Part shown: positions 4,265-53,240 of the stretch, in pieces
Position numbering within the stretch: the first letter of the stretch is position 1
Layout: every line of letters begins with the position of its first letter
Sequence record: OR339795
Direction: 5' to 3' (one strand)
Source: Escherichia phage phi456
DNA: 64,000 nucleotides
Notes under the pieces: generated by a model
Told to the model about the DNA's origin: nothing
What the model saw: the letters and a program-made list of their open reading frames with translations, nothing else
The model's database searches: none
Made by a program: the position numbers and the translations under genes

Positions 4265-4397
4265 AAAGACCTCATAAGCGAATTTTTTACGCTCCAGGAC
4301 AAACACCCATTCACAGCCAATACCGACTGACTCGATCCCTTTAGAAGGCACAGGATAATGCAAATCACTTGTTAGCTACGTTTCAAAGATATACATT

Positions 4398-4414
4398 ATT
4401 GCTCTAATTAATTT
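4398..4414 (+). promoter_or_regulatory. C1 repressor operator-like site
   Basis: ATTGCTCTAATTAATTT, close to the P1 C1 operator consensus ATTGCTCTAATAAATTT as I recall it; sits between divergent lyz and ssb. Confidence 0.5.
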
Positions 4415-4433
4415 ATTTTATTAGGTAAGATAA

Positions 4434-4922
4434 GTGGCACAACGCGGTGTAAACAAAGTCATCCTGATTGGTACCCTGGGGCAAGACCCGGAGATCAGGT
4501 ATATACCAAATGGCGGAGCGGTCGGAAGACTCAGCATCGCAACGAATGAATCATGGCGCGACAAGCAAACGGGCCAACAGAAAGAGCAAACAGAATGGCA
4601 TAAAGTCGTTTTGTTCGGAAAACTTGCTGAAATTGCGAGTGAGTATTTACGAAAAGGTTCTCAGGTCTACATCGAAGGAAAACTTAAAACCCGTAAGTGG
4701 ACAGATGACGCCGGTGTAGAACGTTACACGACGGAAATTATCGTCAGCCAGGGCGGCACCATGCAAATGATCGGCGCTCGCCGCGACGATTCACAATTCT
4801 CAAATGGCTGGGGGCAGTCAAACCAACCTCAAAACCACCAGCAATACAGCGGTGGCAGTAAACCTCAGAGCAACGCCAATAGCGAACCTCCAATGGACTT
4901 TGAAGACGATATTCCATTTTGA
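4434..4922 (+). CDS. ssb: single-stranded DNA-binding protein
   Basis: GTG start; OB-fold N-terminus, Gly/Gln-rich linker and acidic C-terminal DDIPF tail. Confidence 0.95.
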
Positions 4923-4959
4923 GAGGGCTGAAAGTTGCTCGATTACTTAAAAATAACTT

Positions 4960-5140
4960 TACCTAATTGGTGTAAAAAAATGGGCGCAACAAAGCGCCCC
5001 AACAATAGAGTTTCAAATTAATAAAAAGGTAATAAATAACATGAAGTTAAATTGAGAAGAGGCAATTTTATTGCCTCTTCAAAGGTGGCATGAGGGTGCC
5101 ACCTATATGCGGGCAGTGACATCACTCCCTTCCCGCATAT
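4960..5140. terminator. cluster of four stem-loops between convergent ssb and porin genes
   Basis: GGGCGCAACAAAGCGCCC, GAAGAGGCAATTTTATTGCCTCTTC, GGTGGCATGAGGGTGCCACC and GCGGGCAGTGACATCACTCCCTTCCCGC palindromes within about 180 bp. Confidence 0.4.
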
Positions 5141-5155
5141 TCTTACCTACCAAAA

Positions 5156-6268
5156 TTAGAATTGGTAGGTCATACCAACAGCAACGATGTTGTCGGTTGC
5201 AACCTCAGATCTTTTGGTAAATTCACTTTCATCAATCAGGTTGATCTTGTAGTCAACGAAAGCGGACATATTTTTGTTGAAGTAATAAGTCGCACCCAAG
5301 TCGATGTATTCAACCAGATCCTGGCTGCCGAACGCACCAATATTTTCACCGCGAGAGTGCAGATAAGCGATGGACGGACGCAGGCCGAAATCAAACTGGT
5401 ATTGAGCAACAGCTTCAAAGTTTTTCGCCTTGTTCGCGATAAAGTCATCACCGAAGACAGTCATATTCTGAGTTTCAGAATAAGTTGCAGCCAGGTAAAT
5501 GTTATTTGCGTCATATTTCAGGCCAGTAGCCCATACTTCAGCAGTTTTACCAGAAGCATTCAGAGGATCCTTTTTAGCATAGGATACCTGCCCATCAGTA
5601 CGATCAGATTTTGCATAGGTTGCACCAACGCCAAATCCTTCATAATCGTAAGTAGCAGACAGACCAAAGCCATCACCATTAGATTCAACTACGTCACGGC
5701 CTTTCCAGTTGTTCACTTTTGCAGCACTATCATTTTTACCTTGATACTGCAAAGCAAAGTTCAGACCATCAACCAGGCCGAAGAAATCATTGTTACGGTA
5801 GGTGGCTACGCCAGTAGCACGCTGGGTCATAAATACATCGGTCTGAGTCCAGGTATCTCCACCAAACTCAGGCAGCACGTCAGTCCAAGCGCCAATATCA
5901 TAAGCTACACCATAGTTGCGACCATAGTCGATTGAACCATAATCAGCAAAACGGAGGCCAGCAAATGCAAGACGAGTTTTATCTTTATCAGAGCCCTCAG
6001 ATTCAGTACGGTTACCTTTAAATTCGTACTCCCACTGACCAAAACCGGTTAACTGGTCATTAATCTGAGTTTCACCTTTGAATCCCAGACGAGCATAAGT
6101 CTTATCTCCGTCATCACTAGCTGAAGAAGAGAAGTAATGTTCTGCGTTAACTTTGCCGTACAGATCCAGTTTATTACCGTCTTTGTTGTAGATTTCAGCT
6201 GCTTGCGCAGACATTGCCATCAGGACAGATGCTGCAACCGCAGAGAGTGCCACTGTGATTTTTTTCAT
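5156..6268 (-). CDS. outer membrane general porin (OmpC/OmpF/PhoE family)
   Basis: 370 aa; signal peptide ending AQA, then [29 protein letters not shown] motifs and C-terminal ...YQF barrel terminus. Confidence 0.9.
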
Positions 6269-7009
6269 TTTTTTTGCCCTTTAGATTGAACTTTTCAGTA
6301 GAAAAGAAGTCACTGCGGACAAATGTTTATCTTTTTTGGATTCGTGTTTCAAGTTTTGCAAATAAAAATCAAGGTATTTTTGTGATCAAAATCACAAATA
6401 ATAGCCTTGAAAACCCAATGGACTATTAGAAAAAACTCAATTCACAGAATAAAAATTGACAAAATAGATCAAAAAACAATCAAAAATAAGCACAAAAGAC
6501 AAACAATTAAATTATCACAAAAATAATAACTGTCAAAAATAGATAGCCTGTTAATTAACAGGGCTTTAATGGATGTAGACTTGAAATCTACTTAAAAATT
6601 AGAATCAAATTAATTACTGCCGATTGGGTATTAAATTGAATCTATATTGTGAGAGTTAAAGACGATGTGTTTTAGTTATAAATGTTATTCCCTAAAATGG
6701 AGCGGTCTCATCGAATCCTGATTAATAACGAGCTAAGCTAATTCATTTTAGTATGTGTATATCTTTACCCTCTGAATATGCAATAAAGAAGAGATATTAA
6801 ACAATATGTAGCTTCAGGATTGACTCTGGAAGAATTAAAAGATCGACTAAAGTGTTCAATATGTGGTGAGCGAAACGCAAAAATTAATTTTTTTTGATCT
6901 AACATATTAGGTAACGGCTTGCTTCCATAACCTAAAGCAAGCCACTACGCGTTTACTTTAAGTACACAATTAACATATCAGAACAGATTATTTTTGCACA
7001 ATCAGGGAG

Positions 7010-7321
7010 TTAATATACGATCTGGTCTACATGATCACCAAAATCATCATCGTCGTCGTCATCATCGCCACCATCTACTGCTGGCCAATCAACAAACCAG
7101 CCAGCGTAAAGATGCAGCGTTCGGAGAACATCACTTGCGGGAGCATCAAGGGTGTTAACGAATCCCATATAGCTATTGGGATTTGCCCCAGCTATGGCTT
7201 CAGCGATCATGTCCTCGGTAATGTCACCGGAGATAATGCTTAAACGCCCGGAAACTTCTTCATTATCATCAAATTCGATAATGGCATCTCCGCCTAATGG
7301 CGCTGCGATTTTAATCTGCAT
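7010..7321 (-). CDS. small highly acidic protein with an 8-Asp tract (distal gene of the dar operon)
   Basis: 103 aa, about 24 D/E against about 3 K/R, run DDDDDDDD; overlaps the ddrB stop. Confidence 0.5.
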   Translation of the reverse strand: MQIKIAAPLGGDAIIEFDDNEEVSGRLSIISGDITEDMIAEAIAGANPNSYMGFVNTLDAPASDVLRTLHLYAGWFVDWPAVDGGDDDDDDDDFGDHVDQIVY

Positions 7322-10298
7322 TATTTAGCTCCTTTGCCACACCTAATAACAGTTCCAGCAATCCGTCACCATTCATCAGTGATGCGGCAGCGGCCTCTTT
7401 GTCATGATACAACTGAAGAGCCATAGAGAATACTTCCGTTGCTGACGTTTTGGAAATAGTCGGTGATTTCTGCCGAATTTTCCCGGTGTTACTTACTGAG
7501 GCTGGCGGGTATACCTTCGCCATATAAATATTACTCAATCGAGATCTGAAGCACCATTCAGGCTTGCCACGCCCACCGATATTAACGAAAGATGGCTTAT
7601 CCCCTTCAACATTGGCCTTCAGGAATGACCGGGCTTTCTCTAACAAACCAGGGTTACTGTACTCAAGATGATGACCCAGCTCGTGCCACAGTGCACTTGC
7701 ATTTTCATCGTTCAAATTGACAGCAACAACACCATTAAGATTTGCATATGCCCTTCCCTGGTGGTGAACCACCTTTGATAAGGTCGAAATTTTACCGCCG
7801 GTCAGGCGATAAATATCAGCAAGTTCCTTGCGCAGGTCTATCCCACCATTCTGTCCAGCGCGGGCTTCTTCCACTTCTTCCGTGATAAAAGAGTCGGCCC
7901 ACTCAAGAGCTTTTTCTTCAGATACGGATGAGTTTGCGATCGCACTGTTCATGGCAGATAACACTTTCTCGTGGACCGAACCCATTCTTCGCTGATTCAT
8001 TTGCCAGCGTGTCTGCGGGTTATATGAGAATCGCTTAAGTAGTTGGTCAAGCTGCTCAAGTTCTTCTTCACTGACATACCTTTTAGCCTCACCAATAATG
8101 CCAGGGAGAATATTGCCGTTAGGATTAAACGCTCGCGAAAGGAAGAGTTTCAGCGCCCCCATGCCCTCCGATGCTTCAATATCACCAATAACCCGGTTAA
8201 CAATGGCCGCACTCTTCGGATTAGCATCCGCCAACGCTCTGGCTACAATTTGCAGGGACGATACGACCTCACGCTGCATATCAGTCCTGATCTCATCAAT
8301 AAACTCTGGCGTTATGCCGTGCTCTTTAAGGATATCCCTGCCTTCCGCCGTTACCCCATCGATATCACCGACATGTTTATTAACCCGACTTTGCAATGCC
8401 TTAAATGCCTTCAGAATTCCACGGGAATCATCCGCTTTACTAACGGCCTTCCTGAATGCTGGCAAGAAGTCTGAGTTAACCTCATTTTGTTGATCGGCCC
8501 ACTGAATGGAGGCTTCTTTCATCTCGTCCAGAGTCAGATCACCCAACGCGGTATGGTCTGTGAATATGAGCGACAACCTCTGAACCATTTCTGCCAATGG
8601 TGATGCCGAATGCGCCGCGCTAAGGAATGCTTTCACCCTGGTTGGGCGAATGGAAAACCAGTCAATAGCTGGTGGCATATCTCCGTTTTTTATCGCCTGC
8701 GCTATCTCGTCAAAGCCATCGCGCCCAAGGGAAGATGCGTGATTTAACAAGCCGCGAAGTAACGAATTGCTGATACCGAATAATCGGCACCATTTTTTCA
8801 CGTCGGCAACAGGCATTCGAACAAAATGCGCAAGCACTTGTACAAGCTGTTCATCCTGGGGATCTGTGCGGGAAAGCAGCCTGATCAGATGAATAATGTC
8901 TTTGATGCCGGATGCCCGATGTAATAGCAAACTGGTATACGGAGCAACACCGTTGTAACTACCGCCGGAAACGGACTCGAAAAGACCGCCGGATATCCCT
9001 TGCATGCCTTCGTTTTCCAGTTCCTGAGACACCTGGCGAAGGATATCCTGTAACGACACATCGCCGCCGCCAAACATATCCCCCAGCGCCTGGCCCTGGT
9101 GCTGTAACTCATCATTGATACGTTGAGCCATCAACTTAAAGGCGGTGGCCATACGCTTCGCGCTACGGTTATTCGCGACGATGAACAACGCGAGAGCTTT
9201 CACTTCCGGGGCTGTTTCGCTGAACATATCCCCCTGAGCAATAACATCGGTAATATGTTGGCCTGACTCCTTCGATTGCCTTACCAGGTCTACCGCATCT
9301 TTCAATGCCGCCAGCGCCTTTTTATCGAGACTATCCGCTGTCTCAATGCCATCAACAATAGTTGTCACAGCCTGCTTGTGCGCTTCACCTGATAAAGCCT
9401 GCATCTGGACAAAATCATTGGCTGCCGCATTAAGCGCCGTCAGAACATTACGCATATCTGGATCAGGTTCTTCTGCAACCATCCTTACCAGGCGCGCATC
9501 CTTATATGCCTTGGCAAAGATCGCGTTTTGTATACGGTCTACAAGTTGCCGTGTTGGTCGCCCATCTTCAGTTACAAGGCCAGCCGCCTGTGTGGCACCA
9601 ACTTGCGTCATAAATCCGCGAATAAACGCGTTATTACTGCGGCTAAGCAGATCTCCGCTTTCTGACGGGTTAAAAAGCGCCATCATCGCCGGTGTTATGC
9701 TGTCGGCATCAACAAAAGCCTTTTCACTGGCTGCCATTTCCTGGAGATCAGAAATATTTGAGTCCTTGGCAAACTGAACACGGTCAACCTTCGTTAACCG
9801 GCGGCGCACCAGTACCGGAGCCGTCATTGATTCAACCTTTTCAGGCCGTATGCCGAATTCGGTCGCATGTTCAATCAGGTACTCCCGATACCGATCCGCA
9901 TTACCGTCCTGATAGGCTTTAATGATCCCCATGGTCCGCCCATTACCTGACTCAACGGCATTGTCCTCACCAATTATCGGCGCACCATGGCTGGATAAAC
10001 CGGAATCAGTAAGCTGAGCAGGCCGCAAATCTTTGGATATCTGGTTAACCTGAAGAAGGCTGGATGCGCGGGTCCGGTCGCGCGGCTGAAGTTCCTGGGG
10101 ATAGTCAGGATTAATTTTCCCATCCAGAGTATTGGATACCAAAAGAGCTGAGGCATCGACGATATCAAACGCTGTTTTTACCTCGTCTCCCTTCGCTGTC
10201 ACCACATACGAAACCCGCCCATAATCGGGCAGGTTCTTAAGCAGCTCGATCAGCGTTTCTATGCTGGTGGCCATTACCACCTGATCGCTTAAGCTCAT
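7311..10298 (-). CDS. ddrB: DdrB-like antirestriction-associated protein
   Basis: 995-aa ORF in the hdf-darA-ddrA-ddrB order; contains WHELGHHLE (HExxH) near the C-terminal quarter. Confidence 0.5.
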   Translation of the reverse strand: MSLSDQVVMATSIETLIELLKNLPDYGRVSYVVTAKGDEVKTAFDIVDASALLVSNTLDGKINPDYPQELQPRDRTRASSLLQVNQISKDLRPAQLTDSGLSSHGAPIIGEDNAVESGNGRTMGIIKAYQDGNADRYREYLIEHATEFGIRPEKVESMTAPVLVRRRLTKVDRVQFAKDSNISDLQEMAASEKAFVDADSITPAMMALFNPSESGDLLSRSNNAFIRGFMTQVGATQAAGLVTEDGRPTRQLVDRIQNAIFAKAYKDARLVRMVAEEPDPDMRNVLTALNAAANDFVQMQALSGEAHKQAVTTIVDGIETADSLDKKALAALKDAVDLVRQSKESGQHITDVIAQGDMFSETAPEVKALALFIVANNRSAKRMATAFKLMAQRINDELQHQGQALGDMFGGGDVSLQDILRQVSQELENEGMQGISGGLFESVSGGSYNGVAPYTSLLLHRASGIKDIIHLIRLLSRTDPQDEQLVQVLAHFVRMPVADVKKWCRLFGISNSLLRGLLNHASSLGRDGFDEIAQAIKNGDMPPAIDWFSIRPTRVKAFLSAAHSASPLAEMVQRLSLIFTDHTALGDLTLDEMKEASIQWADQQNEVNSDFLPAFRKAVSKADDSRGILKAFKALQSRVNKHVGDIDGVTAEGRDILKEHGITPEFIDEIRTDMQREVVSSLQIVARALADANPKSAAIVNRVIGDIEASEGMGALKLFLSRAFNPNGNILPGIIGEAKRYVSEEELEQLDQLLKRFSYNPQTRWQMNQRRMGSVHEKVLSAMNSAIANSSVSEEKALEWADSFITEEVEEARAGQNGGIDLRKELADIYRLTGGKISTLSKVVHHQGRAYANLNGVVAVNLNDENASALWHELGHHLEYSNPGLLEKARSFLKANVEGDKPSFVNIGGRGKPEWCFRSRLSNIYMAKVYPPASVSNTGKIRQKSPTISKTSATEVFSMALQLYHDKEAAAASLMNGDGLLELLLGVAKELNNAD

Positions 10299-42479: not shown

Positions 42480-42806
42480 ATGACTAAAAATACTCGTTTT
42501 TCCCCCGAAGTCCGTCAACGGGCAGTTCGTATGGTTCTGGAAAGTCAGGGCGAATATGACTCACAATGGGCGGCAATTTGTTCCATTGCTCCAAAGATTG
42601 GCTGTACGCCAGAGACTCTGCGCGTCTGGGTTCGCCAGCATGAGCGGGATACCGGGGGCGGTGATGGTGGGCTCACCACCGCTGAACGTCAGCGTCTGAA
42701 AGAGCTGGAGCGTGAAAATCGTGAACTGCGCCGCAGTAACGATATCCTTCGCCAGGCTTCCGCTTATTTTGCGAAGGCGGAGTTCGACCGCCTCTGGAAA
42801 AAATGA
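42480..42806 (+). CDS. IS629 transposase OrfA
   Basis: 108 aa [21 protein letters not shown]... HTH and leucine zipper. Confidence 0.85.
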
Positions 42807-43591
42807 TGCCACTGCTGGATAAGCTGCGTGAGCAGTACGGGGTCGGACCGGTATGCAGCGAACTGCATATTGCCCCGTCAACGTATTACCACTGTCAGCA
42901 ACAGCGACATCATCCGGATAAACGCAGTGCCCGTGCGCAGCGCGATGACTGGCTGAAGAAAGAGATACTGCGCGTATACGATGAAAATCATCAGGTGTAC
43001 GGTGTGCGTAAAGTCTGGCGTCAGTTGTTACGGGAAGGTATCAGGGTGGCCAGATGCACTGTGGCACGTCTCATGGCGGTTATGGGACTTGCCGGTGTTC
43101 TCCGGGGTAAAAAGGTCCGTACGACCATCAGCCGGAAAGCCGTTGCCGCAGGCGACCGCGTAAACCGTCAGTTCGTGGCAGAACGTCCTGACCAGCTGTG
43201 GGTAGCTGATTTTACTTACGTCAGCACATGGCAGGGCTTCGTCTATGTGGCGTTCATCATTGATGTATTTGCCGGATACATCGTGGGGTGGCGAGTCTCA
43301 TCGTCTATGGAAACGACATTCGTGCTGGATGCACTGGAGCAGGCGTTGTGGGCCCGCCGGCCGTCCGGCACAATCCACCACAGTGATAAAGGTTCTCAGT
43401 ATGTATCGCTGGCCTACACGCAGCGGCTTAAGGAAGCCGGCTTACTGGCCTCAACAGGAAGTACTGGTGACTCGTATGACAACGCGATGGCGGAGAGCAT
43501 CAATGGTCTTTACAAAGCGGAGGTAATACACCGTAAGAGTTGGAAAAACCGGACAGAAGTGGAACTGGCCACACTAACGTGGGTGGACTGG
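42803..43591 (+). pseudogene. IS629 transposase OrfB, truncated by IS2 insertion
   Basis: DDE transposase frame diverges after ...TLTWVDW at the IS2 boundary; the remaining C-terminus ([28 protein letters not shown]) is found at 44923-45030. Confidence 0.8.

Positions 43592-48773: not shown

Positions 48774-53240
<4,467 letters not shown>

Follow-up and report, generated by a model that had tools for sequence, protein, structure and literature searches.

The window analyzed here, a 64,000-nucleotide stretch of Escherichia phage phi456 (sequence record OR339795), belongs to a P1-family phage-plasmid and carries an intact porin gene between ssb and hxr. We identify this region as the nmpC cassette of P7 type. 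It is a moron, an autonomous unit of cargo in P1-family phage-plasmids, and takes the place of the isaA-IS1 segment of P1 at the variable ssb-hxr site. The identity of the cassette as a P7-type nmpC porin unit is certain, and the porin itself is not new, being already annotated in P7 and in approximately 100 plasmid records. The new point is a modest one: the 3' untranslated region (3'UTR) of the porin gene is, judging by its sequence and predicted structure, a diverged homolog of the porin-repressing RNA IpeX, which would place a diverged IpeX lineage in P1-family elements, and we propose a base-pairing mechanism for it. The best explanation in our view, with a probability of roughly 60%, is that the cassette combines autonomous porin cargo with an IpeX-like RNA and thereby replaces the porins of the host.

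An intact porin gene in P1 backbone

The open reading frame (ORF) of the porin gene, as translated from the window, encodes 370 aa without interruption, and the product covers the whole of the Pfam Porin_1 model (1-337 of 337 positions, 493.8 bits, E 3.9e-148). Among NCBIfam models, it passes the cut-off of the OmpC subfamily NF007841 (530.4 bits; cut-off 484) and does not attain the PhoE and OmpF equivalog cut-offs. Its best relatives of solved structure are Omp36, OmpC and OmpK36. The signal peptide comprises residues 1-23 (positions 6200-6268), in agreement with the 23-aa signal peptide annotated in P7, and the protein has the PEFGG motif of L3 and ends in YQF. The gene thus encodes an intact general porin of the OmpC/NmpC class with a signal peptide. 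A preliminary description of this DNA, made from the sequence without database searches, had called the gene a complete general porin, which these matches confirm; the disruption in the source genome that it named as a contrary outcome is not seen. Over the full length, the protein is 79.5-82% identical to lambdoid Lc/NmpC (PA-2 Lc and many lambdoid phage porins), with differences grouped in five blocks, one of which is an insertion of 6-9 aa; these blocks are likely surface loops. Naming varies among records: the porin is ompD in many annotations, among them the JL22 record and a paper on Klebsiella mcr-1 plasmids (PMC5786510).

Positions 4400-7400 match Escherichia phage JL22 and many E. coli plasmids at 100% identity, and phage P7 at 96%. 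The porin is placed between ssb and hxr/dar of a P1/P7-like phage-plasmid. On the ssb side, the window matches P1 at 97.5% identity up to the ssb stop codon at 4922, and on the hxr/ddrB side similarity to P1 resumes at 6789 with 94% identity. Because both flanks are P1 backbone, the element is not chromosomal, a second contrary outcome that had been raised in advance, and the porin gene is not disrupted. In P1 itself the site holds isaA-IS1-isaB, in line with the preliminary description, which placed an IS1 of P1 here, and the site is already known as a variable region of P1-like elements (PMC9603915).

Comparison with plasmid pHNBY4G-2 (NZ_CP136027.1) provides a view of how the cassette was accommodated. 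In this plasmid, the cassette occupies the exact place of isaA and IS1, ending at the base where the IS1 of P1 ends, and a complete isaB is kept between the porin cassette and hxr. Relative to pHNBY4G-2, the window and P7 share a further deletion of approximately 610 bp, and the isaB promoter together with the 5' 497 bp of isaB is gone. The alignment shows how the arrangement in the window and P7 would have derived from a pHNBY4G-2-like one by this deletion.

The 3'UTR resembles IpeX in layout, fold and sequence

IpeX is described in three published accounts (PMC12197685, PMC5069750, PMC8065619) as a 167-nt RNA that is derived from a phage porin transcript and lowers OmpC and OmpF. It has no Rfam family, and ipeX is unannotated in NC_000913.3, where micF is annotated. 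A covariance model (R1) comprising 21 lambdoid-type sequences, and no P7-type sequence, matched positions 4974-5158 on the minus strand of the window with 71.3 bits (E 2.6e-14). This was the sole match in 64 kb, and R1 found no match at chromosomal ompD-like loci. The matched 3'UTR starts directly at the stop codon of the phage porin and ends at its intrinsic terminator, the arrangement by which an IpeX RNA is recognized. Its predicted fold has a minimum free energy of -66.9 kcal/mol (z -6.0). The K-12 DLP12 region downstream of nmpC has the same four-hairpin layout, and the K-12 counterpart of the 3'UTR measures 165 nt, against the 167 nt published for IpeX.

Compensatory changes were found in 12 of the 39 pairs of the 3'UTR, and none of 500 shuffles attained the observed values. 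On the model-guided alignment, 97.4% of cells were paired, versus 41-49% with the partners slid; this alignment was used for counting since the 5' arm of stem-loop 1 was two columns out of register in a MAFFT alignment. Between the P7-type and lambdoid clades, the best conserved unpaired part of the 3'UTR is the stretch at 5024-5056, which we treat as the predicted seed. The preliminary description had suggested a small RNA near the porin and placed it in the upstream leader; the idea of a small RNA stands but the location does not, and it is the 3'UTR, rather than the upstream hairpin discussed below, that likely represents a small RNA.

A sub-threshold match to the Rfam family GcvB was also observed at 4974-5160 on the minus strand (30.5 bits versus a gathering score of 42, E 3.6e-4). 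We do not read this as GcvB membership of the 3'UTR; the similarity probably reflects a shared layout of stem-loops and terminator.

The seed is predicted to pair with ompF and ompC

Candidate targets were scored using the seed only, with shuffles and a background of 170 start regions, as full-length RNA-RNA duplexes came out meaningless. Against the ribosome-binding/start region of ompF, the window seed is predicted to form 12-14 perfect bp plus a further 6 bp (-23.4 kcal/mol), which beats all 170 background regions. Against ompC, the predicted duplex lies around the start codon and consists of 8 + 9 bp with one bulge (-20.5 kcal/mol), second best relative to the background. No pairing was predicted with the element's own porin mRNA (z about 0). 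K-12 IpeX has a different profile: its 15-bp pairing with the ompC Shine-Dalgarno region, including one G-U, is better than all 170 background regions (-23.5 kcal/mol), and its pairing with ompF is weaker (-18.6 kcal/mol, behind four of the background). We also observed that the single-stranded part of K-12 IpeX (AACCUUCUGUUAUAU; DLP12 574368-574532) is complementary to the Shine-Dalgarno region of ompC (AUAUAACAGAGGGUU).

The seeds of MicF and of the window RNA contain an identical 12-nt stretch, UUAUUUAUUACC. The MicF model (RF00033) gave no match at E <= 5 on 4300-7500, nor at gathering score on the whole window, so the 3'UTR may act on ompF in a MicF-like manner but is not a member of that family.

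A composite upstream region with a predicted CRP site

The gap between the porin and hxr spans 6269-7009 (741 bp), with a GC content of 27-33% versus 47% for the window, and no ORF of more than 51 aa was found in it. The sole annotated small ORF of the gap, JL22 gp17 (window 6407-6526), has its frame broken by indels between variants. The region is thus as long, AT-rich and devoid of ORFs as first described. It does not, however, form the single 740-bp leader that was envisaged: the region is composite, and only the proximal ~160 bp are common to any other porin gene. Similarity to a chromosomal porin of E. coli CE12-1 extends upstream to 6429, and the distal 220 bp are P1 backbone, consisting of the C-terminal remnant of isaB and the convergent isaB/hxr spacer. 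For the AT-rich spacer in between (6430-6784), distant blastn searches of E. coli genomes, plasmids, phages and 160 porin loci found no relatives outside P1/P7-like elements, and the comparison with the PA-2 and DLP12 upstream regions gave no significant similarity. Long AT-rich non-coding upstream stretches are usual for phage porin genes: that of PA-2 measures 803 bp and that of DLP12 572 bp.

We infer a transcription start site (TSS) near 6317. The promoter has weak hexamers, and no consensus promoter emerged from the scan of the minus strand. Upstream of them lies a perfect CRP core palindrome, TGTGA-N6-TCACA (TGTGATCAAAATCACA). In the alignment it coincides with the annotated CRP site of PA-2 lc (J02580, 1363-1383), which is equally far from the ATG. 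CRP-type sites occur at -126 to -128 from the ATG in four cassettes (window, PA-2, DLP12 and CE12-1), and the segment from the CRP site to the ATG is almost invariant across five variants, whose differences further upstream amount to as much as 16%. The regulator site that we identify upstream of the porin is therefore this predicted CRP site; of the earlier suggestion of regulator sites in the region, this much holds, and the part that assigned the role to the hairpin does not. No C1 operator was found near the porin. The unit has a promoter region (with the CRP site) and a terminator of its own, and its layout fits the autonomous lysogenic-conversion cargo proposed in the preliminary description.

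Other elements of the region were also noted. The resemblance of TTGAAACA to an OmpR half-site was judged too weak and was not used. A perfect 16-bp palindrome, CCTGTTAATTAACAGG, lies at 6547-6562; its core TTAATTAA is conserved and the flanking arms are broken in other variants. A hairpin at 6574-6590 is not conserved among variants.

Distribution of the porin unit

Of 514 matching PLSDB plasmids, 104 carry the whole porin unit, as do 107 of 5,426 complete E. coli genomes (~2%). Porins with 90% identity or more to that of the window are encoded by approximately 113 plasmids, a few of which have a disrupted copy. The ORF, CRP site, 5'UTR and 3'UTR are intact and conserved in about 100 plasmids, among which there are four sequence variants. 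P1-family phage-plasmids occur commonly in E. coli, and resistance genes such as mcr-1 or CTX-M are often found on them.

On the chromosome of E. coli CE12-1 (NZ_CM188249.1, 3065955-3067052 and flanks), a porin resides in an insertion sequence (IS)-dense island beside a type I restriction-modification system. This copy is a mosaic, with 5'UTR, CRP site and 3'UTR of the P7 type (3'UTR 92% identical) and a mature protein like PA-2 Lc. Its composition suggests recombination between the two cassette lineages.

A proposed model of porin replacement and its alternatives

Under the explanation we favor, transcription of the porin in a lysogen would start at a sigma-70 promoter activated by CRP-cAMP and would not depend on the C1 repressor. 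The porin would be exported and form trimers whose surface loops are unlike those of Lc/NmpC and of host OmpC/OmpF, and the 3' end of its transcript would yield the IpeX-like RNA. The single-stranded stretch of this RNA may then pair with the ribosome-binding/start-codon regions of host ompF and ompC, in a MicF-like manner on ompF, and lower their translation. Overall, the element's porin would replace those of the host, changing permeability and removing receptors of other phages and colicins. Should the 3'UTR indeed repress ompF and ompC, lysogens would be expected to differ in antibiotic permeability and in their sensitivity to phages and colicins that depend on OmpC or OmpF. A more specific proposal, which we offer tentatively, is a porin-swap module in which one transcript supplies both the new porin and a diverged IpeX whose dual-specific seed (MicF-like on ompF, start codon on ompC) silences both host genes; comparison of the two clades would settle the action of IpeX as direct base pairing.

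Several points weigh against this explanation. The alignment on which pairs were counted was fitted to the structure of the model, and the changes comprise few independent events because they mostly separate two clades, P7-type and lambdoid. The duplex energies ignore accessibility, and the 170 background start regions were drawn from the window and other enterobacterial loci, not from the transcriptome of E. coli. Different ompC sites are predicted for the two IpeX clades, which may represent retargeting or partial coincidence, and in the primary IpeX paper (Castillo-Keller 2006) IpeX reportedly showed no simple complementarity to ompC. The TSS, RNA processing and the 3'UTR RNA itself are all predictions from sequence, and porin expression and trans-repression of OmpF and OmpC are what we would expect in lysogens. 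H-NS may be drawn to the very AT-rich upstream DNA and hold the porin silent, as for other "quiescent" porins. Finally, disrupted copies exist, by an ISVsa5 insertion near codon 36 in NZ_MN510446.1 and by a frameshift in pSCLS1; because some copies are inactivated, the porin is dispensable for the element.

Part of this evidence bears on an alternative that we consider unlikely, although it fares best of those weighed: the porin is expressed and its 3'UTR is merely a cis element for mRNA stability and termination, the complementarity to ompF and ompC being incidental to AU-rich sequence. Multi-hairpin 3'UTRs can simply shield mRNA from exonucleases, and the disregard of accessibility, the small background and the unlike ompC sites of the two clades also speak for this reading. 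Set against this, the lambdoid homolog of the 3'UTR is described from experiment in two reports (PMC5069750, PMC12197685) as a trans-repressor of OmpC and OmpF. Moreover, the stretch predicted to pair is the best conserved unpaired part of the RNA, and its first and second ranks against 170 regions fall on ompF and ompC, the known IpeX targets, with the element's own mRNA left unmatched.

Less probable still is that the cassette is silent cargo with little phenotypic effect under ordinary conditions. Beyond the possible attraction of H-NS, the weak promoter hexamers and the loss of some copies without loss of the element are in keeping with silence, and NmpC/OmpN have been described as quiescent (PMC3333887, PMC5745476). 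Yet the conservation of ORF, CRP site and both UTRs across the four variants argues otherwise; the silence of K-12 nmpC is due to an IS5 insertion and not to its promoter; and PA-2 Lc is made in lysogens, according to two accounts (PMC8065619, PMC12197685).

The upstream hairpin belongs to the P1 backbone

The 9-bp-stem hairpin that the preliminary description located at about 6925-6955 is real, and its 86-nt context folds better than shuffles on either strand (z -3.6 on the minus strand, z -3.2 on the plus strand). Its proposed role as the mark of a porin regulator or small RNA is not supported. The hairpin is 100% identical in P1, a phage without the porin, as is the sequence around it, and the P1 record AJ000741 annotates a "terminator" at the dar operon's end that corresponds to window 6906-6979 and spans the hairpin. 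The hairpin and the porin are separated by the remnant of isaB, and in pHNBY4G-2 by the whole of isaB. A T-run after the stem is absent on both strands, so this is not a canonical intrinsic terminator, and the terminator scan did not call it. We conclude that the hairpin is a backbone feature at the end of the dar operon with no part in the porin unit.

No Rfam match was found in the leader, either at permissive thresholds on 4300-7500 or at gathering scores on the whole window. In a consensus fold of the leader, none of the 145 predicted pairs was compensatory and the covariation term was unfavorable, a comparison of low power given five variants at 84-100% identity; two local hairpins of the AT-rich part are broken in two of the five variants. 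The view that the long upstream region, free of ORFs as it is, forms a dedicated porin leader, with the hairpin as a regulator site or a porin-controlling small RNA, is thus highly improbable in light of the hairpin's identity in porin-less P1, its separation from the porin by isaB and the lack of covariation in the leader.

Other features of the window

The hxr product (7010-7321, minus strand; 103 aa with a run of eight Asp) gave no Pfam match, and its annotation as a "putative repressor, Xre homolog" is therefore unsupported by the Pfam scan. Elsewhere in the window, we observed a sok antitoxin RNA at 31611-31785 on the plus strand (114 bits), which implies a hok/sok-type addiction module on the element, and a match to the isrC family of Hfq-binding small RNAs at 49499-49620 on the minus strand (78 bits). 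An ALIL pseudoknot at 42761-42877 on the plus strand (121 bits) is an IS3-family frameshift signal, and an IS element is therefore present in the window. The C4 antisense RNA and a1/b1 target repeats of the P1 immI region lie at 27957-28163 on the plus strand.

Features of the porin cassette and its flanks, in window coordinates. Strand is given as + or -; a point marks features without an assigned strand.
Feature	Position	Strand	Basis or remark
Distal cassette end, ssb stop codon to porin terminator	4923-4973	-	P1 homology ends at 4922
Structured IpeX-like 3'UTR, 185 nt including stop codon	4974-5158	-	Three stem-loops, single-stranded stretch, terminator
Intrinsic terminator, GGGCGC-TTTGTT-GCGCCC then ATTTTTTT	4982-4999	-	Terminator scan, fold
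Mostly single-stranded stretch CUCAAUUUAACUUCAUGUUAUUUAUUACCUUUU, predicted seed	5024-5056	-	Predicted fold, duplex analysis
Stem-loop 3 of 3'UTR, GAAGAGGCAAU-AAA-AUUGCCUCUUC	5056-5080	-	Fold, pair counts
Stem-loop 2 of 3'UTR	5083-5104	-	Loop CCCUCA nearly invariant, P7-type versus lambdoid
Stem-loop 1 of 3'UTR	5105-5140	-	Fold, pair counts
Porin gene (P7 nmpC; ompC/ompD in other annotations)	5156-6268	-	370 aa, Porin_1 match
Proximal upstream region common to lambdoid lc/nmpC, probable 5'UTR	6269-6332	-	Alignment
-10-like TAAACA	6324-6329	-	Porin promoter alignment
Putative -35-like TTGAAA	6347-6352	-	Invariant in 6 of 6 aligned porin promoters
CRP core palindrome	6381-6396	.	Single match in 64 kb, 0.08 expected
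AT-rich spacer, 27% GC	6430-6784	.	Known solely from P1/P7-like elements with this porin
3' remnant of isaB, last 36 codons	6787-6897	+	Alignment to P1 and pHNBY4G-2
Convergent isaB/hxr spacer of P1 backbone	6898-7009
9-bp-stem hairpin, GGCTTGCTT-N10-AAGCAAGCC	6925-6952	.	P1 backbone, convergent isaB/hxr spacer
hxr	7010-7321	-	Far side of the porin-hxr gap

Comparison with known systems

The closest known counterpart is nmpC of P7 (AF503408 / NC_050152, "NmpC precursor"), which is the same gene and occupies the same site (ssb - nmpC - odaA/hxr - prt/ddrB). The two are 96% identical in DNA over 3 kb and 96% identical in protein, and they share the upstream and downstream non-coding DNA. The window nonetheless holds an allelic variant, identical to that of JL22 and many p0111/IncY plasmids, and its amino-acid changes relative to P7 are concentrated in one loop block at residues ~232-236.

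Lc of PA-2 and NmpC of DLP12 are more distant. Their porins are 80-82% identical to that of the window, differing in the five surface-loop blocks, and the likeness extends to a homologous 5'UTR, a CRP site at -126 to -128, a long AT-rich non-coding upstream region and a homologous 3'UTR with three stem-loops, the conserved single-stranded stretch and a terminator. In contrast, the carrier of the window cassette is of the P1 family, with the porin at ssb-hxr and not in a lambdoid late region between Q and the lysis genes; its far-upstream DNA bears no relation to theirs, and the window 3'UTR is 20 nt longer. The next-closest proteins, Salmonella OmpD and the chromosomal ompD-like porins of Enterobacter and Citrobacter, are 72-75% identical, but neither their 3'UTR nor their upstream region is homologous to that of the window.

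With MicF (RF00033), the candidate window RNA shares its predicted target site on ompF mRNA and 12 nt of the seed. The two differ in overall structure and in origin, the window RNA being derived from a 3'UTR and MicF from a free-standing gene divergent from ompC. Compared with lambdoid IpeX, the window RNA has a distinct seed, better predicted pairing with ompF and a shifted ompC site. The cassette may prove useful as a second, diverged lineage of the lambdoid-type porin-plus-IpeX unit, resident in P1-family phage-plasmids: two IpeX lineages with conserved structure and different seeds provide a comparative handle on how IpeX acts.

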